64,000 nt of DNA from an uncultured Pseudomonadota bacterium (GTDB lineage: Bacteria > Pseudomonadota > Alphaproteobacteria > Rs-D84 > CACZYB01), in assembly GCA_902785275.1 (NCBI GenBank), contig CACZYB010000001.1:192001-256000 (forward strand). Reading direction: 5' to 3'. Every line of letters begins with the position of its first letter. The first letter of the stretch is position 1. The notes under the pieces are model-generated. The model saw only the letters and a program-made list of their open reading frames with translations, did not search any database and was not told the origin of the DNA. The position numbers and the translations under genes are program-made. This document shows, piece after piece, positions 298 through 52,677 of the stretch.

Positions 298-2106
298 ATG
301 TTATTCAAAAAAGATAAAAAGAAAAAAACAACAAAAGCCTCTTCTAAACCTAAAAAAGAAACAAGAGCTGTAAAAAAAGCAAAAAAAGTTGTTGAGGCTC
401 CAAAGGTTGAAAAGAAAAAATTAATTAAAACAAATATGAATTTATCCGCATCAGATAACCGTGTTTACTTCGGTGCTCTTGGTGGTATGGGGGATAAAAT
501 TGGTTGTAATCTATATCTTTACGGAACACGTGGAGATTGGATAATTATCGATATGGGTATCGGCTTCCCAACTGAACGTATGGCTGGCGCTGAATATGTT
601 ATTCCGGACTCGACATTCCTTCGTTCAATAAAGGATAGAGTAAAAGCAATCTTGCTTACCCACTCACACGAAGATCACTATGGCGCAATTCCATACATCT
701 GGCAAGAAGTTGGTTGCCCAATTTATGGTACTGCATTCGCCCTAAAAATGTTGGAAAACAAGCTTGCAGAAAATGATCTTATGGGAAAGGTTCCAATGCG
801 TAAAGTATCAAAGGAAGGTGCGCATTTCAAACTTGGTGCATTTGATATTGAATACTTCCACCTAACCCACTCTATTCCACAATCTTGCGGTATAATTTTA
901 AGAACTGAACAGGGTGCAATTCTTCACACCGGCGATTGGAAGTTTGATCCAAATCCACTTATGGATAAACAAAGCGATATGGCAACACTTAAAAAACTTG
1001 CAAAAGAAGGTGTTCTTGCCGTAATGTGCGATTCAACAAATGCTCTTGAATTAAATCACAGCAGAAGCGAAGCCGATGTTGTAACAGAACTTGAAAAAGT
1101 TGTAAAAGGCATCAAATCAGGCAAGGTTGTAATTACTTGTTTTGCAACAAACGTTGTTCGTATGCACAGTATTTTCCACACAGCCCAAGCAACCGGTCGT
1201 AAACTTGTTGTTCTTGGTCGCTCTATGGAAACAATTATTGATATCGCAAAATCTGAAGGCTATATCGAAGATTTCGAATATATGTCCGCTGATGAAGCAT
1301 ACAAATACGACGATGATAAAGTATTATATCTTTGCACCGGAACCCAGGGTGAACCACGAAGCGTTCTAACCCGTGTATCAGAAAACTCTTACACAGATTT
1401 AAAACTTCACGCTGGCGACACTGTAATCTTCTCATCAAAGATTATTCCAGGAAACGAAGAATCAATTTTGAACGTTCAAAACAATCTTTCACGTCAGGGT
1501 GTAAATGTTATCACAACACTTGATAATCCAAACATTCACGCATCTGGCCACGGAAGCAAACCAGAACTTGAACAACTTTACAATTTGTTAAAACCACAAA
1601 TTGCAATTCCTGTTCACGGTGAACCAATACACCTTTTCCGTAATTCAAAGATTGCTACAGAATGCAAAATTCCAAATGTTGAAATAATAAACAATGGTGA
1701 CTTCATCGCCATAGAAGACGGTAAAAAGCCTGTTGTTGTAGAAAAGATTCCAACTGCTGAAATAATCATCGATGGAACACGTCACATCTCTGCAACAAAC
1801 GATGTCTTCTCTGCAAGACGAAAGATTAACTATAACGGTGCTGTTTTCATAAGTCTTATTATGAATAAATCCGGCTTAGTAGGAAAGCCAGAAGTTTCAT
1901 CTTTCGGAATGTTTGAAACAGACTCAACCGGAATGATAAAATCCGCAATTATTGCAGAAATCAAATCTACAATAAAGAACCTATCAAAAAAAGAACTAAG
2001 CCGTGACGATACAGTCCGTGAAATCACAATCGCCAGTGCAAGACGAGTAATCCGTGATTTAATGGATAAAAAGCCACCAATTTCAGTTCACATAGTAAGG
2101 GTATAA
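298..2106 (+). CDS. rnj: Ribonuclease J (metallo-beta-lactamase/beta-CASP) with Lys-rich N-terminal extension
   Basis: LTHSHEDHYGA, HSIP, HTGDWK, GTQGEP, HASGH and PVHGE motifs. Confidence 0.95.
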   Translation: MLFKKDKKKKTTKASSKPKKETRAVKKAKKVVEAPKVEKKKLIKTNMNLSASDNRVYFGALGGMGDKIGCNLYLYGTRGDWIIIDMGIGFPTERMAGAEYVIPDSTFLRSIKDRVKAILLTHSHEDHYGAIPYIWQEVGCPIYGTAFALKMLENKLAENDLMGKVPMRKVSKEGAHFKLGAFDIEYFHLTHSIPQSCGIILRTEQGAILHTGDWKFDPNPLMDKQSDMATLKKLAKEGVLAVMCDSTNALELNHSRSEADVVTELEKVVKGIKSGKVVITCFATNVVRMHSIFHTAQATGRKLVVLGRSMETIIDIAKSEGYIEDFEYMSADEAYKYDDDKVLYLCTGTQGEPRSVLTRVSENSYTDLKLHAGDTVIFSSKIIPGNEESILNVQNNLSRQGVNVITTLDNPNIHASGHGSKPELEQLYNLLKPQIAIPVHGEPIHLFRNSKIATECKIPNVEIINNGDFIAIEDGKKPVVVEKIPTAEIIIDGTRHISATNDVFSARRKINYNGAVFISLIMNKSGLVGKPEVSSFGMFETDSTGMIKSAIIAEIKSTIKNLSKKELSRDDTVREITIASARRVIRDLMDKKPPISVHIVRV

Positions 2107-2192
2107 ATAACTTTTATCGTGGAATTTTTAAACACATTTAAAGAAAAATTCCCCATTTAATAAAATAAAAATAAAAAAGTTAAAAAAAAGAC

Positions 2193-2221
2193 TTGATTTT
2201 ATAGAAAATATAGGTTATAAA
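2193..2221 (+). promoter_or_regulatory. sigma70-type promoter of tRNA-Asn
   Basis: TTGATT-17 bp-TATAAA, 11 bp upstream of the tRNA. Confidence 0.6.
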
Positions 2222-2232
2222 TTACTCACTAT

Positions 2233-2307
2233 TCCGGTGTAGCGCAGTGGTAGCGCAGTTGACTGTTAATCAATTGGTCGTTGGTTCGAATCCATCCACC
2301 GGAGCCA
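2233..2307 (+). tRNA. tRNA-Asn(GTT)
   Basis: TCCGGTG/CACCGGA acceptor stem, anticodon loop CTGTTAA, GGTTCGAATCC T-arm, encoded CCA. Confidence 0.97.
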
Positions 2308-2448
2308 TAAAATCAAACCCCACTTCATGCGGGGTTTTATTTTTTGCTTTGATGAGAGGGATTAAACCATGCAAAGCAGGTTCGGTGAGCATTAGCGAAC
2401 GACGCCGAAGGCGATCCAAAGGACGAGCGAAGCGAGCAATCCATCCAC
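2308..2448 (+). repeat. tRNA-linked ~140-bp module (terminator hairpin + structured GC-rich segment + partial tRNA 3' copy), copy 1
   Basis: TAAAATCAAA-hairpin-TTTGCTTTGAT...TTAAACCATGC...TTCGGTGAG...CGAACG...GAGCAATCC; a diverged copy follows tRNA-Gln; ends in AATCCATCCAC, identical to the tRNA T-arm 3' side. Confidence 0.8.
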
Positions 2449-2507
2449 AAAAAATTTTTCCAACCCTTACACGGACCATCCCAGCGGAAAATCTAAGCAA
2501 AACCTAC

Positions 2508-3269
2508 TTATCTTCCCACTAATCCATTTTTATAAATTTCACAAACTCTATCCAAAGTAGAAACACCCTGTTTAGAACAATCCGGACACATTGGAGGAAA
2601 TCCTCTTAATTTCCTAAATAATCTCTTCTCTGTAATATCACTCATATTTCCATTCATTCTTTGTTGCATAATACAATACGCTACTGTACAATGAGGTCCT
2701 AGTGCTTCTTTAACATTAGATCTATCTCCATTTGTAAAAAATAGAATATGCCCAAATTCGTGTTGAACTACTGTTTGAAAATTAGCTATATCAAATTTAT
2801 TTGTATTCCAAAAGCGATTTGTAGAAATAACACTAAATCCTCCAGGAACTGTTTGGCCAAGACAATAATTACTTGCATTATAAGAATACAAATCATACTT
2901 AGTTAAATAAATACCAAATTGAGGAATTTTTCTGAAATAAGGATCTAACAACAAACAATGACACATCTCATCAACATTTATTTGTTTCGTTGGTTCCCAA
3001 CGTCCCTCTTCAATAGCTTTTTTCTTTGCTTGCTCTATATACCAATCAATACTTTCATAAGGAGTTAAATTAAATTTTCCATTTTCATAAGTACGGTAAT
3101 TTCCTGATTTCCAATTACCTACAATCTTAATAGGAAATCTATCTTTATAATCAGGAAAACAATTCATAACATCTTCTATCGCTTTTTTAGCATAAGAAGC
3201 AAACTCATCCATTCCTTCTTGATTAAAAATTAAAATCTGTCTAATAGCTTCCCGATTATTCTGTTGCAT
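2508..3269 (-). CDS. Putative zinc metalloprotease (archaemetzincin/M54-like)
   Basis: HEFGH followed by HC-x4-CIM and distal CPDC; own promoter TTGACA-17-TATTAT at 3301-3329 (minus strand). Confidence 0.7.
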   Translation of the reverse strand: MQQNNREAIRQILIFNQEGMDEFASYAKKAIEDVMNCFPDYKDRFPIKIVGNWKSGNYRTYENGKFNLTPYESIDWYIEQAKKKAIEEGRWEPTKQINVDEMCHCLLLDPYFRKIPQFGIYLTKYDLYSYNASNYCLGQTVPGGFSVISTNRFWNTNKFDIANFQTVVQHEFGHILFFTNGDRSNVKEALGPHCTVAYCIMQQRMNGNMSDITEKRLFRKLRGFPPMCPDCSKQGVSTLDRVCEIYKNGLVGR

Positions 3270-3336
3270 AATTTTTACCTATTCAAAAACTTCAAATTCT
3301 ATAATAAACAAAATAATACAAAATGTCAATTAGAAA

Positions 3337-3366
3337 AATCCGTCCACCATCCACTCTCCCGAGCCA
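3337..3366 (+). repeat. 30-bp cassette-boundary repeat R1
   Basis: AATCCGTCCACCATCCACTCTCCCGAGCCA. Confidence 0.95.
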
Positions 3367-3476
3367 AGTTAGATAAGCCGTCCGAAAGGGCGGTTTTTTC
3401 ATATAAATTCAAGCATTTAAGCTAGTCCGTGTGACTATTCTTAAAAATATGCAATTCCCAGCATTTACACGGACCA
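3337..3476 (+). repeat. ~140-bp direct repeat, copy A (30-bp repeat + hairpin + GTCCGTGT...ACACGGAC inverted repeat)
   Basis: Nearly identical to 3947-4086. Confidence 0.9.
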
Positions 3477-3613
3477 CCCCGACGAAAAACCTAAGCAAAA
3501 CCTAGCTTTTATTCCAGTATAAATCCACTCACCCAAAATTAAGATTTAAGAATTTATTGAAAAATAAAAACAAAAAATGCTAAAATAAAAAAGGATTCAA
3601 AAGGAGATATAAA

Positions 3614-3946
3614 ATGAAAAAAATATTATTACTATTATTTGTATCAAGTTTATTTAGTTGCACTACCATTACCAAAGATGGAAAAGAATGTTTTAACACT
3701 CAATCATTTGAAGTCCTTCAAGGATTAGAAGGTGGAGCATTAGCTTATGAATGTCCTTGGTATGATAATGATTGTGATTTTAACCCTCTTGTGCATTTAA
3801 CTAGTCCTAAAGATATAGATTATTATGATGAACAAAAAATTACATCCACATCAACAACCTGTTGGATACAAGATGGAGTATATAGATACACAACTAAAAA
3901 CGAAAGAAAAAAAACTGTTCCTAATTTAATTTTAATTGAAAAATAA
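3614..3946 (+). CDS. Small lipoprotein of unknown function
   Basis: MKKILLLLFVSSLFSC lipobox, AGGAG RBS; stop codon abuts repeat R2. Confidence 0.8.
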   Translation: MKKILLLLFVSSLFSCTTITKDGKECFNTQSFEVLQGLEGGALAYECPWYDNDCDFNPLVHLTSPKDIDYYDEQKITSTSTTCWIQDGVYRYTTKNERKKTVPNLILIEK

Positions 3947-3976
3947 AGTCCGTACACCACCCACTCTTCCGAGCCA
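3947..3976 (+). repeat. 30-bp cassette-boundary repeat R2 (start of ~140-bp copy B, to 4086)
   Basis: AGTCCGTACACCACCCACTCTTCCGAGCCA. Confidence 0.95.
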
Positions 3977-4140
3977 AGTTAGATAAGCCGTCCGAAAGGA
4001 CGGTTTTTTCATATAAATTCAAGCAGTTAAGCTAGTCCGTGTGACTATTTTTAAAATTATGCAAATCCCGACATTTACACGGACCAACACAAAAGGAAAA
4101 AAAACTTGCTTTTGTTCAAACTTCGTTCTATATTATTTTT

Positions 4141-4701
4141 ATGATAAAAAAGATTTTAACATTGTTGTTTCTTCTTATATCTTTTCCCGTAATGGTAAGT
4201 GGAGTTCAAACAGACCAATCCGACCATACAAAATCTGAAGAAATATTATCTATTGAAGAATTCAAGTACAATCTTACACATCAGATAAAAGTGCAAATAC
4301 ATTTTTCTATAGATGACGTATTGGGGAATTACTATGAATTTCCTGATAGTAAAAAATTATATTTTACCATATCCAAAGAAAAATCTGGAAAAATAAAGAT
4401 TGATGATTTTTCCCACAAATATACTTTTATTTGCGATATTGATAAAGAAACATATGAAGATATTTACCTGAATTGTGAAAAATTAAATGAAGAATTGGAT
4501 TGGTTTAAATATCCATATATAATTATAAGTAAGATGAAATCAAATCTTATTTCAAATGATAATTATCTTTTTATTATCTATCACCTACTTGGAAAAGAAA
4601 ATTGGGAAGAATTTGATTGTGATGAAAAAGAAAAAAACGAAATATATGATAGAATAAATTGCACAACAATAGAACAATCAGGATATAAAAGGGAGAAATA
4701 A
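4141..4701 (+). CDS. Secreted Cys-containing protein; putative lysozyme immunity protein
   Basis: Signal peptide, 4 Cys, convergent with the lysozyme gene; paralog of 5646..6149. Function is inferred. Confidence 0.6.
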   Translation: MIKKILTLLFLLISFPVMVSGVQTDQSDHTKSEEILSIEEFKYNLTHQIKVQIHFSIDDVLGNYYEFPDSKKLYFTISKEKSGKIKIDDFSHKYTFICDIDKETYEDIYLNCEKLNEELDWFKYPYIIISKMKSNLISNDNYLFIIYHLLGKENWEEFDCDEKEKNEIYDRINCTTIEQSGYKREK

Positions 4702-4717
4702 TCTCCCCCTTCGACTT

Positions 4718-5386
4718 TTATTCTTCTATTGAATGTAACATATTTTTCCGCCATAGATTTCGTTTTATTTGTATATCCGATGAAGAAGATTCGTTGCCTG
4801 CCAAAATCCAATTCTTTTTATTAATAGCCTCAAAAAAATGAGGCCATTTATTTTTATCAGGCTGGAATTTATTTGCCCCCATATTATACTCCATATCCAA
4901 AATAACAAGCTGAGCATTCCTAGGCAAATTATCAAAATCCTTAAACTTTTTTCTAACTGAATTTAAATCACCTTTTAAATGTTCTAATGCAAGAATTTTC
5001 ATTTCTCCATCCATCAATTCAAGAAATCCCCTTTTTGCTTTTCTATCACGCAACATATAAAATTCTGCTTCTTTTTCCTCTGGTGTAGCAAGCCTGTTTT
5101 TATAATATAAAGGTAATTTTTTAAACTTTTCTACATCATTAAACATACTGCCATAACCAATAGTCACATTACCCTTTGTATCTGTATAAGCATTTCTTCT
5201 ACCTCCTTCATGTTCCTCCAATTTATCAAACAAATCCTCTAAAATTTCTTCCACCTCCACAAATTTACATTTACAGTTTGGGTGAAATGGTGGAATATGT
5301 TCTGGTATCTGGTCAAATTTTCCAGCATACTTTTGACATTCTGAACATACACCATCATCACAAATTATCTCAAAAATTTTACTCAT
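4718..5386 (-). CDS. T4-type (GH24) lysozyme with N-terminal MuF-like Cys/His motif
   Basis: E-x8-D-x5-T catalytic triad (HEGGRRNAYTDTKGNVTIGYG), DMEYNMG; N-terminal CSEC...PPFHPNCKC. Confidence 0.85.
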   Translation of the reverse strand: MSKIFEIICDDGVCSECQKYAGKFDQIPEHIPPFHPNCKCKFVEVEEILEDLFDKLEEHEGGRRNAYTDTKGNVTIGYGSMFNDVEKFKKLPLYYKNRLATPEEKEAEFYMLRDRKAKRGFLELMDGEMKILALEHLKGDLNSVRKKFKDFDNLPRNAQLVILDMEYNMGANKFQPDKNKWPHFFEAINKKNWILAGNESSSSDIQIKRNLWRKNMLHSIEE

Positions 5387-5410
5387 TTTCTCTCCTTAAA
5401 TTTAAGTTAA

Positions 5411-5517
5411 TAAAAAAGCCCTTGGTATAAACCAAAGGCAAAAAAAACAGGATAAGCATATATACACTTATCCCATTAGATAAGATCTACTATACCACAA
5501 AATAAAGAACAAGTCAA
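5411..5517 (-). promoter_or_regulatory. Lysozyme promoter and leader containing two tandem terminator-like hairpins
   Basis: TTGACT-17-TATAGT (5489-5517); GGATAAG..CTTATCC+T-run and GCCTTTGGT..ACCAAGGGC+T6 before the AGGAG RBS. Confidence 0.6.
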
Positions 5518-5526
5518 GAACAATTT

Positions 5527-5556
5527 AGTCCGTCCACCATCCACTCTCCCGAGCCA
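5527..5556 (+). repeat. 30-bp cassette-boundary repeat R3
   Basis: AGTCCGTCCACCATCCACTCTCCCGAGCCA followed by TAAAATCAAACCCC, as after tRNA-Asn. Confidence 0.95.
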
Positions 5557-5645
5557 TAAAATCAAACCCCGCATCTGCGGGGCTTTTTTTACATCCAAGC
5601 GGAAAAAAACTTGCTTTTGTTCAAACTTCGTTCTATATTATTTTT

Positions 5646-6149
5646 ATGATAAAAAAGATTTTAACATTGTTGTTTCTTCTTATATCTTTTCCTGTAATGG
5701 CGAAGAATAATATAATTATTGATAATTTTTTGGGGAATTACTATTCTGCACCAACAAGTATTTTACAAAAATTTTCAATTTCAAAAGAAAAAGATAAAAA
5801 GGTTAAAATTGAAATATTCGATATTCCTTTTCATAAAAATAATGAAGTTATTGTTTCTAAGAAAAATATTTTTTTATGTAATACAGATAAAATAACTAAT
5901 ACAAAAATCTATTTAGATTGTGAAGACATACTACCTAAAGAAGACAAAATATCAGAAGAACTTTTTAGATATATCTATGTTATCATAGATACAACAGAAA
6001 AAGGAAGATTCGGTGATTTGAATTATCTTTACTTTTCTTACTATAACTTAGGCAAAAAAGATTATGAAAAGTATGGTTGTGATGAAAAAGAAGAATATGA
6101 TATAAATTGTAGGACTAATTTTAAAGAAGGATATAAAAGGGAGGAATAA
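5646..6149 (+). CDS. Secreted protein, paralog of 4141..4701; putative orphan immunity protein
   Basis: Identical first 18 aa (MIKKILTLLFLLISFPVM); conserved LGK...CDEKE...INC...GYKRE C-terminus; divergent middle. Confidence 0.65.
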   Translation: MIKKILTLLFLLISFPVMAKNNIIIDNFLGNYYSAPTSILQKFSISKEKDKKVKIEIFDIPFHKNNEVIVSKKNIFLCNTDKITNTKIYLDCEDILPKEDKISEELFRYIYVIIDTTEKGRFGDLNYLYFSYYNLGKKDYEKYGCDEKEEYDINCRTNFKEGYKREE

Positions 6150-6161
6150 ACCTCCCCTTAA

Positions 6162-6190
6162 TTATTCTTCAATGGATTGTAACATATTTT
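6162..6190 (-). pseudogene. Lysozyme gene remnant (last ~8 codons only)
   Basis: Minus strand encodes NMLQSIEE* (vs NMLHSIEE* at 4718), fused directly to a copy of the lysozyme RBS/leader (6191-6316, matching ~5392-5517). Confidence 0.85.
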
Positions 6191-6316
6191 TTCTCCTTAA
6201 ATTTAAGTTAATAAAAAAGCCCTTGGTATAAACCAAAGGCAAAAAAAATAGGATAAGCATATATATACTTATCCCATTAGATAAAATCTACTATACCACA
6301 AATTAGAGAACAAGTT

Positions 6317-6346
6317 AATCCGTCCACCACCCACTCTCCCGAGCCA
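6317..6346 (+). repeat. 30-bp cassette-boundary repeat R4
   Basis: AATCCGTCCACCACCCACTCTCCCGAGCCA, followed by a terminator-like hairpin. Confidence 0.95.
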
Positions 6347-6375
6347 TAAAAAATCCCCACACAAAGTGGAGGCTT

Positions 6376-7635
6376 TTATTGATATCTTAACGCTTCTATC
6401 GGATCAAGCTTTGTCGCTTTTAACGCAGGGAATATTCCCGATGCAATTCCAACCACAATAGCCACAGAAAACGAAATTACAACCGTAATCATAGATATTG
6501 GTACAGATTTATTAAGTATAGCTCCTACCACCTGAGATATTCCAATCCCAAGCACCATTCCAACCATACTTCCGATAAAAGAAATCAAAATCGCTTCTAA
6601 CAAAAATTGATAAAGAATATATGAGTTCTTTGCACCAATAGCTTTTCTTATACCAATTTCCCTTGTTCTTTCCGTTACAGATACAAGCATCATATTCATA
6701 ATACCAATGCTTCCAACAATAAGGGAGATAGATGCAATAGATGCAAGCAAAATCGAAAGATATGTACCCACCGATTTCACAGTTTCAACCATCTCGGTCA
6801 TATCATCAACCCTAAAATCATTTTCGGCACCTGGCTTTATCCTACGTGATTCGCGAAGGGCATTTTCAATATATTTCTTTGCCTTATTTATATGCTTATC
6901 ACTATCAACCTGAGCCATAATATAGTTCACACGATTAGGAATATAACTACCCTTAATTCTTCTTCTATAAGTAGAAACAGGCATAATAACGGTTTCATCC
7001 CTATCCATACCACCCATACCTTGACCTTTTGCTTTTAATACACCCTTAACAACAAAAGGAATATTATTTACACGAACAGTTTTTCCAATGGCATTTTCAC
7101 CACCAGGGAAAAGATTCGATTCAATAGTCTTTCCAATAAGGACATAAGCCTGCGCCAATTTTACATCACGATCGGTTAAACCTTCACCTTTTTCAATCTC
7201 CCACTTTCCAGTATCAAGATAATCCGGAGTAGAAGCAACAATCGATGCAACATAATTCTCGTTTCCATAAATTATTTGCGATGTACCATTAACAATAGGA
7301 GAAACCGCCTTTATATACTTAAGCTTTTTTATAACATCGGCATCATTTGTTTTTACAACAGTCTGACCACCACTTTTCACACCAGAAGTAGCAACATATT
7401 CCGGTCTGATAAGCAAAAGATTACTTCCCATTCCGGCAAAACTATCGTTAATCATATTTTGCACAGTCTGACCTGCAGCAACCATAATAACAACAGCACA
7501 AACACCAATAATAATACCAAGGGTTGTTAAAAACGAACGAAGTTTATTCGATTTGATTGAAATCCAAGACTCACGAAGCACCGCACGTGACATATGAATT
7601 TTCTGATCTATAATTTCAACTTGTTTTTCATCCAT
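6376..7635 (-). CDS. MacB-family ABC transporter permease
   Basis: RSFLTTLGIIIGV, GIMNMMLVSVTERTREIGIRKAIGA, LDPIEALRYQ. Confidence 0.93.
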   Translation of the reverse strand: MDEKQVEIIDQKIHMSRAVLRESWISIKSNKLRSFLTTLGIIIGVCAVVIMVAAGQTVQNMINDSFAGMGSNLLLIRPEYVATSGVKSGGQTVVKTNDADVIKKLKYIKAVSPIVNGTSQIIYGNENYVASIVASTPDYLDTGKWEIEKGEGLTDRDVKLAQAYVLIGKTIESNLFPGGENAIGKTVRVNNIPFVVKGVLKAKGQGMGGMDRDETVIMPVSTYRRRIKGSYIPNRVNYIMAQVDSDKHINKAKKYIENALRESRRIKPGAENDFRVDDMTEMVETVKSVGTYLSILLASIASISLIVGSIGIMNMMLVSVTERTREIGIRKAIGAKNSYILYQFLLEAILISFIGSMVGMVLGIGISQVVGAILNKSVPISMITVVISFSVAIVVGIASGIFPALKATKLDPIEALRYQ

Positions 7636-11148: not shown

Positions 11149-13617
11149 TTAGTACAATGCAATCTTTGGTATTATGGTATCAATTTCAATCATACCAGAA
11201 CTACCAGGAAGACCATAACCATTAGTATTTGTTGAAGGAGGATTTATACCACAGTTTTCACAAGTACCTGATAATGCACCTTCACAATTCAAACCAAATT
11301 CTGATGCATTTGTTGGAAGACCATAACCAGATTTTGCATAAACAAACTTATCTGATAAATGTCTTGCATCTTCACAACCTGCCAATCCATCAACAACTTC
11401 AATTCCTGAAGTAGAGCCACCATAATAACATGCTCCATTAGAACCATTAACCGTTACAGTATTTCCCGAATATATACCCGAGAATTTTGGATCTAAGTTA
11501 CCAGTAATTGTAAATGTTGTTGGATTACCTTGACCTGTACAATTATCATAATAACGACCAGAAGTAGAACCACCAGCACCAATATTATAACTTAGCACTG
11601 CTGTACCTGATGATACACAGAAGTATACAGTTCCTTTTGAACCTTTCTTAGCAGTAGTACGCCAAGAACCACCAGTCGAACCATAAACTTTCACACGGTA
11701 ACAACCAACACCTAATTCTTCTTTACCTTCACCAACTTTTGTAATCTTTTTATTTATACCTTTTTCTGGGTAAAGATATTTTTCATTCTTGTTATCTTTC
11801 TTGCATTCTGATGCACCTTCATCAGACACAAAACCTTCAGGACAAGCCTTACATGATGTTGCTTTACCACCCTTAGAGTAAGTATTAGCAGGGCATTCTT
11901 GACATTCTCCATCTACAAGGATTGAACCAGCATCACAACTTTTTGCTTTTGCCTTTCCTTTTACACATTTACCATCATCAAGAACATAAGATGCCTTACA
12001 TGTCAATGCTTCACCTGTTTCTGCATCACAAGTTTTAACACCAACAGTCAAGCAAGATTCACAAATATCCCCTTCCCCAGCAGAGAAAGTACCTTTCTTA
12101 CATAACTTACAACCTTTTGTTGTTTCATCATACTCTGACCCAGCATCACAAGCAAGGTAAACCGCTGAATCTTCATCAAGCCAAGCTTGCTTCTTCAACT
12201 TTGAACTTGCAGTCCATTCTTTTTCATGAGCATTTTCTGGTAAAAGACAAGTTTTTTCACGAGTATAATAATATCTATCTTCATCTTCTGAATAACCAAG
12301 AACTTTACCAATAGGACAGAATTCATTTTCTTCTTCTGTCTTTGCTTCAACTTTAGGTTCTTCTTTAACTTCCTCTTTTACTTCTTCCTTAACATCTTCC
12401 TTAACATCTTCCTTAGGTTCTTCTTCTCCTTTACATGAAGCTTCACCAGTAGAACCAGCAGGAGCCTTTGTTCCTTCTGGACATGCAGTACATAATGCCA
12501 AATAATCACTTGTACCCTTTACTTTATCTGCAAAGTAATTTTCACGGCAAGAGAAAATTGATGCTTCAGAGAAACCCCATTCTTCTGCTTCTGATGCAGA
12601 CATTTTCTTTACAGCAGATGCAGTAGGTGCGGTACATACTTCATTTGTGTTTGGATTTATATATCCATCTGCACCCTTCTGTACAGGAACACCAATAGGA
12701 CAAGTTTTAAATGCATCAAGACATTCGCCATTCTTTGCCATAAAACCATCATCACATTCAAAATATACAGCTGCACTTTCTTCTACCCATGCAAGCTTTT
12801 TCAATTTTGAACTAGAAGACCAAGCTTCTTCATGAGCATTTTTAGGAGCAGAACAAACCTTTCCACGTGCAGAATAATATTTATTTTCTTCTGCAGAATA
12901 TTCTATAACTTTACTAATAGGACAAGCAGGAAATTCTTCTTTCTTTTCTTCTACTTCCTCTTGTACTTCTTCTTTAACTTCCTCCTCTTTCTTTACTTCA
13001 GCTTTTGCACGTGAGCTTTTTCCACTTGCAGCAACGGCAGATGCTCTTTTAGAGTTAGAAGATGATTTTGTTGCAGCAGCTCTTTTTGAAGATCCAGAAC
13101 GTTTTGAACTTCCTTTTGAACTGCTACTTGCAGTTTGTTTCTTTGAAGAACCTGAACGCTTTGAACTTCCCTTTGCACTAGATTTTGCAGTTTGTTTTTT
13201 TGATGAACCAGAACGTTTTGAACTTCCTTTTGCACTAGATTTTGCAGTTTGCTTCTTTGATGAACCGGAACGTTTTGAACTTCCTTTTGCACTACTACTT
13301 GCGGTTTGCTTTTTAGATGAACCTGAACGTTTAGAGCCACTTTTCTTTGCATTTTGCTTTTTTGAAGAACCTGAACGCTTTGAGCTTCCCTTCTTTGATC
13401 CCTTTTTCTTTCCAGATTTTTTTGATTTTGCTTTTTTCGAAGTTGATGAAGTTTTCTCTGCTTCTTCTTCCCCTTCTACTTCACTATCTTCAAAATCTTC
13501 CTCATAAGTTTCATCAGCTGAACTTTTTGCAACCACTACCTCTGAAACACAAAAAGATACAAAAAAACATAGAAAAATCGATACGAAAATTCTAACAAAC
13601 AATTTCTTTTTCGACAT
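11149..13617 (-). CDS. Large exported protein: acidic patch, Lys/Ser-rich 19-aa repeats, Cys-rich repeats, Gly-rich C-terminal domain
   Basis: Likely start MSKKKLFVR (RBS AGGAAAAGGAAG); hydrophobic N-terminal segment; CxxCPxGT/CPANTYS GCC2/GCC3-like repeats. Confidence 0.8.
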   Translation of the reverse strand: MSKKKLFVRIFVSIFLCFFVSFCVSEVVVAKSSADETYEEDFEDSEVEGEEEAEKTSSTSKKAKSKKSGKKKGSKKGSSKRSGSSKKQNAKKSGSKRSGSSKKQTASSSAKGSSKRSGSSKKQTAKSSAKGSSKRSGSSKKQTAKSSAKGSSKRSGSSKKQTASSSSKGSSKRSGSSKRAAATKSSSNSKRASAVAASGKSSRAKAEVKKEEEVKEEVQEEVEEKKEEFPACPISKVIEYSAEENKYYSARGKVCSAPKNAHEEAWSSSSKLKKLAWVEESAAVYFECDDGFMAKNGECLDAFKTCPIGVPVQKGADGYINPNTNEVCTAPTASAVKKMSASEAEEWGFSEASIFSCRENYFADKVKGTSDYLALCTACPEGTKAPAGSTGEASCKGEEEPKEDVKEDVKEEVKEEVKEEPKVEAKTEEENEFCPIGKVLGYSEDEDRYYYTREKTCLLPENAHEKEWTASSKLKKQAWLDEDSAVYLACDAGSEYDETTKGCKLCKKGTFSAGEGDICESCLTVGVKTCDAETGEALTCKASYVLDDGKCVKGKAKAKSCDAGSILVDGECQECPANTYSKGGKATSCKACPEGFVSDEGASECKKDNKNEKYLYPEKGINKKITKVGEGKEELGVGCYRVKVYGSTGGSWRTTAKKGSKGTVYFCVSSGTAVLSYNIGAGGSTSGRYYDNCTGQGNPTTFTITGNLDPKFSGIYSGNTVTVNGSNGACYYGGSTSGIEVVDGLAGCEDARHLSDKFVYAKSGYGLPTNASEFGLNCEGALSGTCENCGINPPSTNTNGYGLPGSSGMIEIDTIIPKIALY
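13085..13400. repeat. In-frame ~57-bp tandem repeat (GSSKRSGSSKKQTAKSSAK), about 6 copies
   Basis: Recurring GAACGTTTTGAACTTCC...TTTGCACTA on + strand; boundaries approximate. Confidence 0.85.
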
Positions 13618-14023
13618 AGCTCTTCCTTTTCCTATATGGTTTTTTAAATTCCTTTTCTCACGCGATTTTGTACAAATCAAGCATATTATAACAAAACCCC
13701 AAGTATTTTTCAACCCTTTTTTATTACAAACTTCAATTTTATACAAATAAACATAACATCTTGAATTTATCTATGTTTTTTAAGCAAAATTTTATTACAA
13801 TAGACTTAATAAAAAAACTTCATTTTTCACTTACAAAACTAGGAATTTTCTTTTCATTATTCGTCAAAAATCACATCTTTTAATGATATACAAAAACTTT
13901 AAACCACCCTTTTTTGTATATCACTTTCAATATATTCTTTTTTGTACCAAAAAGCAAGGATTTTCAATAAAATTGAAGATAATTGCAATTTTTGTAAAAT
14001 GCGAAAAATTAAAGGGTCGTTTT

Positions 14024-49583: not shown

Positions 49584-50285
49584 TTACCAAGCCTTACAAA
49601 GATTTTTTACTCTCTGATATTCTTCTTTGCTATCATAGGTATTATTATTTTCAATCAAAGCCTTTTCTAGCTTTGATCTTAAGATTTTTATGTTCCTATT
49701 TTCGAACACCATTTTTTGAATTTCATTCCCAAGTTTTTTTTCTGAAATCTTTTCATCAAAAAACATCGGACCAACATCACTTGCAATACGTCTAAGCTCT
49801 TTTAAGATTAACGAACCATAATATTTAAGTTCTTTTCTGTAAATAGCAACATGTCCCAATTCATGCTCTTTTATCGCATTATATTCACAACTACCCTCTT
49901 CATATTTATCATCTATAAGCACATCAATATTCTTGTATCCTATAGTAAAATTAATATTGGAAAGTATCGCACAAATACCATCATTTATTTTATATCTTCC
50001 AAAACCGAAGTCATATTTAATACCAAAATTCGACTTTGTAAGACCCAAAGTAGCTTTTGGGTTTTTTAAATTTTTTAAATCAGAAATTTCCTCTCTTGGT
50101 ACCGATTTAACAACAACATTACCATACTTTATTTGTGTTGTAACATTAGGTTCCTTATAGAAAGTTTCACAAAGTTCATTTGCATAAACAGGCAATGAAA
50201 AATATAAAAAGCCGGCTATTTTCAAAGTTTTTATGACAAAATTACTTAAAAGAGTCAAGATAAACCTCCACAAATTTATCTCCAT
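49584..50285 (-). CDS. Exported hypothetical protein downstream of virB4
   Basis: Signal-like segment ending VYA; HELGH HExxH motif; 4 Cys; true start uncertain. Confidence 0.65.
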   Translation of the reverse strand: MEINLWRFILTLLSNFVIKTLKIAGFLYFSLPVYANELCETFYKEPNVTTQIKYGNVVVKSVPREEISDLKNLKNPKATLGLTKSNFGIKYDFGFGRYKINDGICAILSNINFTIGYKNIDVLIDDKYEEGSCEYNAIKEHELGHVAIYRKELKYYGSLILKELRRIASDVGPMFFDEKISEKKLGNEIQKMVFENRNIKILRSKLEKALIENNNTYDSKEEYQRVKNLCKAW

Positions 50286-52677
50286 GAAGTTTTCTTAATT
50301 CTTCAACCAAAAGAACTTGCTTTCTACCACTATTAAATATTTGAAGATATGGACCAAGTCCTGATAAATCAACATTCAAGATAACAGATTCATCAATAGA
50401 AGGTTTTCTAAACAATATTGCATATTTCAAATCTTTAAATATCTTTCCTTGAATAAATGCCATTTCCTTTGGTGTAAGGTTCCAACTTTCGTAATCTTCA
50501 ACCCTTGCTTGAACGTTTCTAAAGAATATTTGTGTCTGGCATTGACCACGAATAACTTCACCAATTCCAAGTTTATCCAAAACATTTGGTTGCTGGAATG
50601 CTGCCAAATAAGCTTGTCTTTTCTTTCGACCTTCCTGAAGACCTATCACAAAATTCTTTCTGAATTCTGGATTTTGAAGCATAGGAGCAGTTTCATCGAT
50701 TATAATAAGTGATGGATCACCAGTTCTTCCGGTAATATTTTGTATCCTGTTCATAATATAACTAACTACCGCCGGTGCCAAAGTTCCATCTTCAAAAATA
50801 TATGTAAAATCAAATGCAGTAAATCTATTTGATAAATCCAAATTATCGCTATCACTATTAAAAAGCTCTCCATATTGGTTATCATCAACCCATCTGAATA
50901 ACTCCCTTCTCATTTTTCCAGCAGGTGAAAAACATGATTTATAAAGGTTTTTAAGAGAACGTTTTTCAGGTTCCAAATAATCAAATGCAGTTGTCACCGC
51001 ACGCGCAATTTCATTCTCACTTACCGCATCATTAACCAAAGTTATTTCCTTAAGCCATCTTCTTAAAAAAGCTCTATTTTCAGGATTATCATCAATTCTA
51101 AATGGATTAAGATGAGCAATAGTTCCTGTTTTCTTAATATCCTTATCTTTTGTATCACCATCAAAATTTATGTAAGAACCACCTATTGCATGGGTAAAAA
51201 TCTCCGCACCCCTGTATCTATCAAAGAAGAAGCATTTCAAATCTTTAAAACGTAATGATTGCCCAGCCAAGAAAGAATAAAGAGTTGTTTTACCTTGTCC
51301 AGTAGGACCAATCGCAACAGTATGAGCCACCGCAGTAGGTTCCTCAGAAACATGAAATTCGAATTGATAAGCAGTTCCCTGATATGTTGGAAAAATTGCA
51401 ACCGGTCCCTCACCCCAATCACACTTTGAAAAACCTTCTGGTTGCTTTTCAAAATTAAAACTTGTTGCCACAGCACGTGAAAGCATTTTATACATTCTTG
51501 GGTACTTATCATATGTTGGAAATTGAGAGAACCATGATGCCTGAGCCACCCAACCTTCACGTACAGGTGTAATACCATAAAGACGACAAACCTTTTCTAT
51601 TTCAAATACAACTGCATCAAGTTCTTTTAAGCTATCCGCACTAACAAAAAATGTTTCAGCATAATTTACCAATGTCTGATGATCTTCATCACCCTGTTCT
51701 ATCAAAGCCAAAGCATCATCAAATTGTCTTAAAACATCATATGAAAAAGTTGTTGAACTTGCCATTCTTCGTTGATTAACCAAAACCATCTGTGCTTTAA
51801 GTTTTGATATTGGGAAAAGGTTATGAAGTACAGTAATTTCAAAATTCTTTGATAATATATCGGAAAGCATTTGTTCATCAACACTGCTTGCCTGTTGCTT
51901 TATTCCAACAACAGCCATATATTTTGTTCTGTTACCAGATGTAAATCTTATATATCCCTTATTACTAAAAAAAATTTCATCTGATACCAAAAGTTCAGAA
52001 ATTCTATCATAAATAATATTTTCAGACTTTGGATTTGGTCTACTTATCGGATTAATAACATGCGCAAAAAATGCAAGAGGACTTTCTTTTACACCATCTT
52101 CTTTTAAAATATCTACACCAAAATTTGAAAGAACCGCCTGCAAAGTAGATGTTGCAGTATCCAAATCTTTCATTGCATCCTTTCTATCATTAACAGAAAG
52201 AACAATATAGTGAGTATTCATAAAAATCTCACTTTGAGCTTCATTCCATTTTTCGCTTATATCTTTCAAAAGTTTATTATAGTTATTAACGACCTTATCG
52301 GAATGAACTTTTTCTCTTATGGTAAAAATACGTGTTTCAACACTTATCTCGGAAAGACTATCAATCCATTTCTTTCTATCTTCCAAAAACTCCTGAATAA
52401 CTTCACGCTTTGCAAAGGCAAGAGAAACACCATTAACCTTAAAAACTCTAACTAATGTACCATTCTGACAAAGTATAGTTTTTTTATCGTTTAAAATTCT
52501 TTCAAAAGGAAGATAATTAACAAGTCTTGTATCAAAAGGCTTTGGAAGAAAAATATTTACCTTATCAGACATAAATACAACAATAATAACAGCAATCGCT
52601 ATCAACGAAATAACCAAACCCCAATAATAAGAATTTGATAAACCAGCAACTAAAACATTTTCTAAATTAAAGTTCAT
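50242..52677 (-). CDS. virB4: Type IV secretion ATPase VirB4
   Basis: GPTGQGKT Walker A, FFDRYRGAE, LNPF, IIIDE; follows the VirB3-like gene. Confidence 0.9.
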   Translation of the reverse strand: MNFNLENVLVAGLSNSYYWGLVISLIAIAVIIVVFMSDKVNIFLPKPFDTRLVNYLPFERILNDKKTILCQNGTLVRVFKVNGVSLAFAKREVIQEFLEDRKKWIDSLSEISVETRIFTIREKVHSDKVVNNYNKLLKDISEKWNEAQSEIFMNTHYIVLSVNDRKDAMKDLDTATSTLQAVLSNFGVDILKEDGVKESPLAFFAHVINPISRPNPKSENIIYDRISELLVSDEIFFSNKGYIRFTSGNRTKYMAVVGIKQQASSVDEQMLSDILSKNFEITVLHNLFPISKLKAQMVLVNQRRMASSTTFSYDVLRQFDDALALIEQGDEDHQTLVNYAETFFVSADSLKELDAVVFEIEKVCRLYGITPVREGWVAQASWFSQFPTYDKYPRMYKMLSRAVATSFNFEKQPEGFSKCDWGEGPVAIFPTYQGTAYQFEFHVSEEPTAVAHTVAIGPTGQGKTTLYSFLAGQSLRFKDLKCFFFDRYRGAEIFTHAIGGSYINFDGDTKDKDIKKTGTIAHLNPFRIDDNPENRAFLRRWLKEITLVNDAVSENEIARAVTTAFDYLEPEKRSLKNLYKSCFSPAGKMRRELFRWVDDNQYGELFNSDSDNLDLSNRFTAFDFTYIFEDGTLAPAVVSYIMNRIQNITGRTGDPSLIIIDETAPMLQNPEFRKNFVIGLQEGRKKRQAYLAAFQQPNVLDKLGIGEVIRGQCQTQIFFRNVQARVEDYESWNLTPKEMAFIQGKIFKDLKYAILFRKPSIDESVILNVDLSGLGPYLQIFNSGRKQVLLVEELRKLHGDKFVEVYLDSFK

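Follow-up and report, generated by a model that had tools for sequence, protein, structure and literature searches.

The stretch of DNA analysed here, hereafter called the window, comprises 64,000 nucleotides (G000:C1:192001-256000; contig CACZYB010000001.1) of the 1.05 Mb genome, 95.7 % complete, of an uncultured alphaproteobacterium (GTDB lineage Rs-D84; CACZYB01). Public records of its relatives are titled uncultured Alphaproteobacteria metagenome-assembled genomes (MAGs), several of them from ruminant guts. Among the sequencing runs listed, none is of RNA, and those with small shares come mostly from metagenomes of ruminant guts. Near the beginning of the window two open reading frames (ORFs) converge with 16 nt between them: one of 222 amino acids on the minus strand (4718-5386), hereafter called the toxin, and one of 186 amino acids on the plus strand (4141-4701), hereafter called partner A. 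An earlier note on this DNA had delimited the two ORFs in the same way and had interpreted them as an antibacterial muramidase and its immunity protein. On one side of the pair are the genes of RNase J and tRNA-Asn, on the other those of a MacB/ABC/HlyD/OEP exporter. The relation of the pair to its counterparts in related genomes, and to a T7-like head-tail gene set on the same contig, is the subject of this report. Between the two genes lies a hairpin (4691-4709; GGGAGA-AATAA-TCTCCC at 4691-4707) which overlaps the stop codon of partner A, so that both genes share it, as had been proposed, and which is terminator-like when read on the minus strand, i.e. for the toxin transcript; its folding energy was not exceptional (z -0.5 and -1.7). 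Similar hairpins are found 3' of partner B, described below (6139-6156), and 3' of the toxin gene at locus L005.

Residues 46-222 of the toxin (4718-5251, minus strand) make up a predicted muramidase domain of the T4/pesticin type (glycoside hydrolase family 24, GH24). Pfam Phage_lysozyme (PF00959) was matched by residues 58-100 (E 8.7e-6; 26.5 bits, cut-off 22.3) and Pesticin weakly, and at E ≤ 1 no Pfam family was matched beyond lysozyme, pesticin and MuF ones, an XVIPCD-type C-terminal signal of X-Tfe effectors not being sought. PHROGs gave an endolysin match for the toxin (2.9e-11), and minor head protein (1e-6) and head-morphogenesis families for its N-terminus. The catalytic residues of T4 lysozyme (T4L) are E11, D20 and T26, and E60, D69 and T75 of the toxin place the Glu, Asp and Thr typical of GH24 at the same spacing (E-x8-D-x5-T). 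These three residues, together with C14, C17, H35, C38 and C40 of the N-terminus, are invariant in all 13 aligned relatives, down to 36 % identity. The AlphaFold2 (AF2) model of the toxin had a predicted local distance difference test score (pLDDT) of 91.3 and the two-lobed lysozyme fold. In Foldseek, one of the checks that the earlier note had proposed, its best PDB match was pesticin (4arq_B, E 3.6e-4), with T4 lysozyme at ~1e-3, a target-normalised template modelling score of ~0.6 and phage endolysins also among the matches. The sequence profile of the 13 relatives matched T4 lysozyme chains as well (E 9e-5), and the ratio of nonsynonymous to synonymous substitution rates (dN/dS) of the toxin was 0.26-0.28. 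Since the N-terminus, judged by eye, is not hydrophobic, a signal peptide appears to be absent; this and the intact triad agree with the first description of the protein. On sequence and structural model together, the toxin is thus a GH24 muramidase of the T4/pesticin type by predicted activity.

A tblastn search of 50,697 phage records with the toxin gave two weak partial matches only, and a search among longer toxin relatives (390-2000 amino acids) gave one unrelated-looking match and by that route no full-length MuF-lysozyme fusion. A scan of viral contigs yielded 56 loci, and all 16 of those inspected were plain endolysins of 154-221 amino acids without the MuF motif.

The first 45 residues of the toxin (5252-5386, minus strand), which hold the five Cys and His residues named above, form a small module resembling the C-terminal end of phage MuF proteins. 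Residues 4-42 aligned with positions 68-111 of the 112 positions of Pfam Phage_Mu_F, scoring 16.1 bits (19.1 in a second search) against a cut-off of 29.6. Residues 2-45 are 43.5 % identical to the last ~45 amino acids of a canonical 301-amino-acid MuF protein of phage MT835509.1, which is encoded after terminase and portal. Within the genus the module occurs in a short form (~45 amino acids) or a long form (~95 amino acids), the long forms scoring 28.1 bits over Pfam MuF positions 59-112 or 20.2 bits over positions 20-112. As judged from these alignments, the module is homologous to the MuF end and is not a full MuF domain. The match to the MuF end, the PHROG head families and the invariant Cys and His residues bear out the earlier description of the N-terminus as the conserved end of MuF. 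In the source genome ~63-80 kb separate the toxin gene from the T7-like structural operon and portal, whereas in two genomes of the order, G051 and G131, a MuF-hydrolase gene lies beside the portal.

Partner A has a signal-peptide-like N-terminal segment and four Cys in its mature part, both recognised by eye and both as the earlier note had them. It matches no Pfam or PHROG family, and neither partner A nor its paralogue partner B matched a lysozyme inhibitor in Pfam (LprI, MliC/PliC, Ivy, PliI/PliG) at E ≤ 1. Relatives of partner A formed only six clusters in an index of 5.8 billion proteins; its profile recovered 15 clusters among 1.84 billion representatives, including one of the second partner family (E 5.7e-4), and had no match at E < 0.2 among PDB sequences. 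The AF2 model of the core (residues 54-186; pLDDT ~90) is an eight-stranded, lipocalin-like β-barrel. Foldseek, likewise among the proposed checks, gave no PDB match at E ≤ 1e-3, and the best score of an ESM Atlas search, 0.78, was under lead level. Exhaustive structural alignment of the core gave lipocalin-type barrels: Tp0751 (Z 8.9), 9jdd_B (Z 7.0) and staphostatin (Z 6.2). The chain 9jdd_B, the third fold match, is one of the two proteins of an entry titled as the BtaeB-BtaiB effector/immunity complex (T6SS) and superposed with a root-mean-square deviation of 3.3 over 89 residues. No lysozyme inhibitor stood among the top fold matches of either structural search, in which Z was middling. 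A complex prediction of the toxin with the partner core scored 0.00, which is no verdict and weighs neither way. Partner A is a candidate inhibitor from an unnamed family, lipocalin-like according to the model of its core; as it matches none of the known inhibitor families in Pfam it would represent a new one, as the note had allowed.

A promoter-like pair, TTGCTT-17-TATATT, ending ~7 nt before the ATG of partner A was recognised by eye, although a promoter scan did not list it. The region upstream of the gene (4098-4140, plus strand; repeat family D4) is duplicated in the window: positions 4098-4195, which run into the signal-peptide codons of partner A, are 99 % identical to positions 5603-5700 upstream of partner B. 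Partner B (5646-6149, plus strand) is a protein of 167 amino acids with 47-57 % identity to partner A, depending on the method, and a dN/dS against it of 0.28; among partner paralogues and orthologues in general dN/dS was 0.28-0.60.

Co-occurrence of the two genes across genomes, another check put forward in the earlier note, was examined first in the family, where 10 of 19 genomes, all of one genus, had a toxin match and 5 of 19 a partner match. Toxin loci were found at 14 places in the genus, two of which are cut by contig ends and one of which is a remnant, leaving 11 that could be evaluated. In all 11 a small gene adjoins the MuF-hydrolase gene on its 3' side, convergent in 10 and co-directional in one, and in 10 of the 11 the small gene product has, by eye, a signal-peptide-like or lipoprotein-like N-terminus; the eleventh (L005) has lost its 5' end to a contig end. 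As in MuF polymorphic toxins, a conserved N-terminus is combined with a variable C-terminus: the N-module is fused to a T4L-like, a classic GH24 or a GH108 domain, the last with or without PG_binding_1 and with PG_binding_3. Two proteins, P0012 and P0013, have 89 % of the N-module in common with the toxin but carry PG_binding_1, GH108 and PG_binding_3, and the N-termini of P0005 (T4L type) and of the G003 toxin (GH108 type) are near-identical. Such near-identical modules on different hydrolases point to domain exchange.

The family of the partner tracks the type of hydrolase, with one exception (G005). Partners of the family of partner A stand beside T4L-like toxins in the window and in G006, G001 and G002, beside the toxin remnant in G004, and in a Rickettsiales MAG; GH108 toxins have a partner from one of two other families; and the gene next to the classic-GH24 toxin encodes a Pfam LprI lysozyme inhibitor (9.6e-15). 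In the Rickettsiales MAG (L108:3647-4576) the T4L-like hydrolase has a different N-terminus and an in-frame stop between its PG-binding and catalytic parts, which may mark a pseudogene or an assembly error. Judged from these sequences, hydrolase domains and partners are exchanged as units between lineages.

Partners are also found without a toxin. About 1.5 kb downstream of the pair lies a second cassette consisting of partner B, a short remnant of a second toxin gene and a copy of the toxin leader. The remnant (6162-6185, minus strand) retains a ribosome-binding site (RBS), the ATG and the last six codons with the stop, corresponding to M216-E222, and positions 6162-6204 are 84 % identical to 4718-4760 at the 3' end of the toxin gene; it is a clean deletion scar. 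In G004 a partner with 91 % identity stands beside a toxin remnant of 58 amino acids. Partner B is therefore a candidate orphan immunity protein: orphan partners beside a scar or a remnant indicate that partners outlive toxins, as expected for immunity genes. Taken together, the sequences support a pair of the polymorphic toxin/immunity kind, in which partner A would inhibit the toxin.

Related arrangements were seen outside the genus. A second Cys/His N-module (GHDTSGHCQ...HV..H.R.G..V..Y.R.CG) bears the same two hydrolase types, T4L-like or PG_binding_1 with GH108, in other Alphaproteobacteria MAGs (L101:3722-4645, L103:6037-7350, L106:1131-2081, L109:3704-4597 and L114:3632-4624), and the genes are followed by one to three tandem genes for lipoproteins of ~125 amino acids; by its gene organisation this is a parallel, putatively polymorphic system with another 'tag'. 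In distant Alphaproteobacteria a long T4L-like hydrolase gene directly follows a scaffold-like gene (L111:2089-2811 with 2846-4540), and at L113 (4548-5177 with 5139-7034) an exported partner gene abuts a gene resembling that of tail tubular protein B. These neighbours, judged by eye, suggest that elements of this kind have long included the hydrolase/partner pair.

The 5' region of the toxin gene (leader, 5387-5517, minus strand) has an unusual design. A near-consensus promoter, TTGACT-17-TATAGT (5517-5489), is followed by an invariant box, CTAATGGGA (from 5479), two terminator-like hairpins (5477-5446 and 5439-5418) and then the RBS, GGAGA. Terminator-like sites were more frequent in the region than expected (13 found, 1.8 expected), and the stems of the leader hairpins vary, by eye, through paired changes. 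The leader design was found within 150 nt of nine of 12 toxin genes, one of the others being cut by a contig end and two standing behind lysis genes that bear the leader. The source genome has three copies according to nhmmer: the one before the toxin; one before the scar (6186-6318, minus strand; 95 % identical to 5385-5517, repeat family D2, E 1.8e-14), which drives the scar only; and one before the T7-like operon (E 2.6e-5).

Within the leader a 49-nt element of promoter plus box, TTCTTGAC-18-TATRRT-8/9-CTAATGGG, with the terminator hairpins next to it, could be defined, its copies in the source genome being at window positions 5489-5517 and 6290-6318 and at G000:C1:133507-133555, all on the minus strand. 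The strict pattern matched 25 times in 11 of 14 genomes of the genus, and a reversed control gave no match. Downstream of the 25 matches are nine structural operons, eight MuF toxins (two of them, in G002 and G013, reached through a holin/lipoprotein/endolysin cassette), six tail-fibre-like genes, of which one was confirmed as Mtd_N, one superoxide dismutase gene and one site with no ORF nearby. A gene of the OmpR winged-helix type (L116:18594-19094) lies just upstream of the leader copy of the structural operon. On the strength of the pattern matches, the genus has a predicted small regulon, defined by the 49-nt element, whose members are phage-like late genes. Its layout recalls that of lambda PR'-tR'.

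The T7-like head-tail gene set (L116; G000:C1:116142-133560) lies ~63 kb upstream of the pair on the same contig. Its leader-headed operon encodes, in order, a PHROG protein of unknown function (holin-like by eye), a weakly SleB-like hydrolase (24.8 bits, under the cut-off), T7 scaffold, a histone-like protein, capsid (PF19821, 4.6e-75), tubular proteins A and B, an internal virion protein and the N-terminal half of TerL. Beyond genes for three secreted proteins and ftsZ follow a T7-type portal (PF12236, 1.6e-119) and the C-terminal half of TerL. The two halves of TerL are separate genes ~9 kb apart (ATPase half, L116:10748-11347, i.e. G000:C1:125748-126347; nuclease half, L116:1142-2011, i.e. 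G000:C1:116142-117011), with ftsZ and the secreted Ser-rich proteins between them. A further TerL_ATPase match, on contig C2, was sub-threshold. An initial impression of a phage-free genome, drawn from the lack of HK97-type portal and capsid and of SPP1-type portal, was overturned by these T7-type genes. The statement that no holin or phage structural genes are nearby accordingly stands for the immediate neighbourhood, with its RNase J and MacB/ABC/HlyD/OEP genes, and fails for the genome. The histone-like protein (L116:16081-16527, minus strand), between scaffold and capsid, is a Lys/Ala-rich histone H1-like (HC2) protein, and may be a DNA-condensing cargo protein.

The element is shared widely. 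Its synteny was found in all seven other genomes compared, from three genera, all with the split TerL and six with ftsZ between the terminase halves, and its capsid is better conserved across genera than FtsZ (74-87 % against 55-71 % identity). The portal is present in 18 of the 19 family genomes and in 186 of the 201 order genomes, and the capsid in 15 of the 19 family genomes. None of the 19 portal matches in the family has an internal stop, and in the order 11 of the matches listed hold one or two (G072, G093, G181, G087, G186, G043, G056, G050 and G136). T7-type RNA polymerase (PF00940) was found in none of the 19 family genomes, but control genomes were silent too, and other replication genes were not searched. 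The conserved synteny, the conservation of the capsid above that of FtsZ and the order-wide portal argue against a passing prophage; the element, vertically inherited with its synteny as in domesticated phage particles, looks like an apparently undescribed domesticated podovirus-like particle, as far as gene content can tell. MuF-type matches occur in 97 of the 201 order genomes, mostly over profile positions ~56-111 only. In G051 and G131 the gene order is TerL_C, portal, a MuF-GH108-PG_binding_3 gene and a small exported-protein or lipoprotein gene. The common leader of the toxin, the T7-like head-tail operon and the fibre and lysis genes, together with the MuF-hydrolase genes after the portal in G051 and G131, contradicts the earlier picture of a phage-independent cassette.

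The pair itself belongs to an array (2233-6346) of four small cassettes after the tRNA-Asn gene, each closed by a 28-mer resembling the 3' end of that tRNA and a hairpin. The anchoring tRNA-Asn(GTT) gene (2233-2307, plus strand) was found by ARAGORN and with 71 bits by Rfam, which in a scan of positions 2000-6500 gave the tRNA alone, remaining matches being far under gathering scores. Cassette 1, between the tRNA and the first boundary repeat, is an ORF of 253 amino acids (2508-3269, minus strand) with a metallopeptidase-like HEFGH motif by eye and, as its sole Pfam match, a weak one to Peptidase_M10 (E 0.1). Its boundary repeat (3339-3366), which aligns to the tRNA 3' end, is followed by a terminator hairpin at 3375-3396. 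Cassette 2 is a lipoprotein-like ORF of 110 amino acids (3614-3946, plus strand) without a Pfam or PHROG family, closed by a repeat with two mismatches (3949-3976; repeat family D3). The third repeat (5529-5556; hairpin at 5567-5582) follows the toxin leader, and the fourth (6319-6346) closes the array on the side of the MacB gene. The 28-mer has four copies genome-wide, all at this array and all on one (the plus) strand, and no integrase was seen in the array. In G003, G004 and G005, which are three other species, the same tRNA is located 0.3-2.6 kb away from MuF-hydrolase cassettes. Cassettes accumulate at this tRNA-Asn hotspot; in G004 the array repeats are present around different cargo, an ORF of 197 amino acids. 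Elsewhere in the window (11149-13746, minus strand) is a gene for a large secreted protein with Ser/Lys-rich repeats, Cys-rich modules and an Ephrin_rec_like match, to which the large secreted Ser-rich proteins encoded between a terminase half and ftsZ (L116:5552-9558, minus strand) are similar.

The reading to which we give a somewhat better than even chance is that the pair consists of a muramidase carried by a particle and of its cognate inhibitor in the periplasm, and is a late-gene accessory module of the domesticated T7-like particle. By analogy with SPP1 gp7 and MuF toxins, the MuF-end module would take the muramidase to the portal and into the capsid, and the muramidase would be ejected into the periplasm of an attacked cell, where it would cut peptidoglycan. 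The partner, predicted to be made from its own promoter, exported by Sec and folded as a disulfide-bonded lipocalin-like barrel, would neutralise its cognate muramidase in the periplasm, so that kin would be protected from particles of their own type. Such protection might serve either as immunity against particles that kill or as exclusion combined with protection from lysis from without. The one or two terminator hairpins between the strong promoter and the RBS would hold off toxin expression, and through the common promoter and box the toxin may be switched on with the head-tail, fibre and lysis genes, under what we infer to be control of the antitermination type. The idea of an antibacterial muramidase with its immunity protein is thus supported by comparison as regards architecture, pairing, swapping and orphans, and is not supported as regards a phage-independent cassette with a self-sufficient delivery tag.

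Several observations weigh against this reading. The short module scores under the Pfam MuF cut-off (16-19 bits against 29.6) and does not have the N-terminal two-thirds of MuF proteins, and its binding to a portal is putative, resting on analogy; characterised MuF proteins are known to go with SPP1- or Mu-type portals, whereas the portal here is of the T7 type. Adjacency to the portal was seen in two of ~20 same-contig portal/MuF pairs compared by hand. The element has no recognisable large T7 core proteins, its TerL is split, and particle production is putative. In G005 the T4L-like toxin (70 % identical) has opposite it not a relative of partner A but another, Cys-rich ORF, which a contig end truncates. 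The fold matches of the partner are middling, the best (Z 8.9, to a lipocalin domain) being within the range common by chance.

Delivery might instead be independent of any particle. The pair could be a stand-alone polymorphic antibacterial toxin and its immunity protein, the toxin leaving the cell through a type IV secretion system (T4SS), as in the X-Tfe/X-Tfi pairs of Xanthomonas and Stenotrophomonas, or on cell lysis; the mini-MuF module would then be a leftover of recombination or a secretion tag of a new kind. The genome has VirB4 (window 50242-52677, minus strand) and VirD4 (G000:C1:20274-21848, minus strand), and the cassette sits at a tRNA hotspot far from structural genes. No TssC gene, i.e. 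no sheath gene of a type VI secretion system (T6SS), was found in the genome, so that the T4SS is the sole specialised system detected, and peptidoglycan hydrolases with periplasmic immunity proteins are described as T4SS cargo in the parts of the literature consulted (PMC10933484, PMC6759196). However, VirB4 is present in all 19 family genomes and MuF-hydrolases in about half, so that the two do not correlate and the T4SS neither explains nor excludes delivery. The late-type promoter and leader link the toxin to head-tail, fibre and lysis genes, and in G051 and G131 the MuF-hydrolase gene comes directly after that of the portal; we consider this explanation rather unlikely. Distinctly unlikely, in our judgement, is an accessory endolysin that acts from within, through the holin of the element, at particle release, the partner being an anti-lysin that protects the producing cell in cis against premature or leaky lysis. 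It would fit the lack of a signal peptide in the toxin and the gene order of G002 and G013, where the toxin gene comes immediately behind a holin-like/lipoprotein/GH24 endolysin cassette that bears the same leader. It would also fit the viral proteins nearest to the catalytic domain, which were ordinary endolysins (16 of 16 inspected of the 56 viral loci); for one T4SS effector, immunity proteins are reported to protect in cis (PMC10933484). Dedicated lysins, however, exist already, GH24 in G002 and G013 and the sub-cut-off SleB-like hydrolase in the element's own operon, and an endolysin would leave unexplained the conserved MuF module, the three swapped hydrolase types with matched partners and the retained orphan partners.

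A MuF domain cut to 45 amino acids, toxin remnants and a deletion scar, and a split TerL could also be what is left of a decaying prophage, in which case the toxin would be a truncated MuF-lysin fusion beside an unrelated neighbour, neither with a present function. The reading frames are intact, however, the catalytic and Cys/His residues are retained across the relatives, the toxin has the low dN/dS given above, the leader is conserved, and the capsid of the element is better conserved than FtsZ, and debris of this kind therefore seems very improbable to us. A wider form of the favoured reading, in which particle-borne muramidases and periplasmic inhibitors form a system common to the order, is offered tentatively and is held at somewhat less than even odds. 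A whole order of reduced-genome gut Alphaproteobacteria would then carry a domesticated, chromosomally fixed T7-like podovirus particle, its genes lying on both sides of ftsZ and its terminase split, with interchangeable MuF-tagged muramidase warheads and matched periplasmic inhibitors of a new lipocalin-like family, a polymorphic system of kin discrimination or killing under a shared leader with promoter-proximal terminators.

The pair resembles several known systems in part. To our knowledge MuF toxins have so far been cargo of temperate phages, with known toxic domains acting inside the cell. MuF polymorphic toxins likewise combine an N-terminus derived from MuF with toxic C-terminal domains that vary, and have a small partner gene next to them, and the link to the portal is seen here in G051 and G131. 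They differ in that only the last ~45 (short form) or ~95 (long form) amino acids of MuF are kept here, the cargo is a peptidoglycan hydrolase with predicted periplasmic action, the portal is of the T7 type (PF12236), the element that hosts them is fixed in the chromosome and spread across the order and is not a temperate prophage, and in this genus the gene is away from the portal. Pesticin of Yersinia, the best Foldseek match, is likewise a muramidase of the T4-lysozyme fold used as a toxin, with periplasmic immunity by Pim, but it has receptor-binding and translocation domains and is taken up through FyuA, whereas the toxin here has a scrap of MuF as its N-terminus. In phage T4 the tail lysozyme gp5 is inhibited in the periplasm by Spackle, so that a virion-borne lysozyme and a small exported periplasmic inhibitor come from the same element, as they would here; the complex 6xc0 appeared among the fold matches of the toxin through its lysozyme chain. 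T4, however, has no polymorphic swapping, gp5 is a tail protein and not MuF-tagged, and the partner model here is a β-barrel. With the effector/immunity pairs of T6SS and T4SS (Tse/Tsi, Tge/Tgi, X-Tfe/X-Tfi, BtaeB-BtaiB) the pair shares an effector without signal peptide, a predicted periplasmic cognate immunity protein and orphan immunity genes, but the T6SS sheath gene was not found, the T4SS is uncorrelated with the toxin, and the promoter is common to phage-like late genes. Lysozyme inhibitors (LprI, MliC/PliC, Ivy, PliI, PliG) are also small exported blockers, and LprI occupies the partner position at one MuF-GH24 toxin, although partner A itself matches none of them in Pfam or among the top fold matches.

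Gene transfer agents (GTAs) such as RcGTA and other domesticated phage particles (reviews PMC11841831, PMC10883770) are alike in having a vertically inherited head-tail set, dispersed loci under common control and a lysis module. A T7-type RNA polymerase, for its part, was not detected in the family, but the search was silent in control genomes as well. The element here, in contrast, is podovirus (T7)-like and not HK97- or siphovirus-like, and bears polymorphic hydrolase/inhibitor modules. Jamet et al. (2017; PMC5576092), in the portion available, defined MuF genes by adjacency of portal and muf and described MuF polymorphic toxins of temperate phages; the words lysozyme, peptidoglycan and muramidase do not occur in its main text. 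Iyer et al. treated lysozyme-bearing polyvalent proteins and MuF toxins, as their accessible text has it. In the parts of the literature that could be consulted no description was found of a T7-like GTA, of a T7-like domesticated element in Rs-D84 or Enterousia, or, supplements lying outside the search, of a minimal MuF-muramidase with an exported partner. The main text of a paper on reduced gut Alphaproteobacteria (PMC12306168) has no mention of phage, lysozyme, GTA or T4SS.

What appears to be new is thus a minimal MuF tag on cell-wall hydrolases, partners from several unnamed families of exported proteins that are candidate lysozyme inhibitors, and a phage-like host element that is apparently a fixed organelle shared across the order, in bacteria whose genomes measure ~1 Mb. 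If the favoured reading is true, the tag would be a compact signal by which proteins could be directed into T7-type capsids, the partner would be a new inhibitor scaffold for T4-type lysozymes, and the system would be a model for how domesticated particles in a crowded gut community come by weapons and immunity specific to the strain. It also suggests a way in which these little-known and possibly partner-dependent bacteria may interact with their neighbours.

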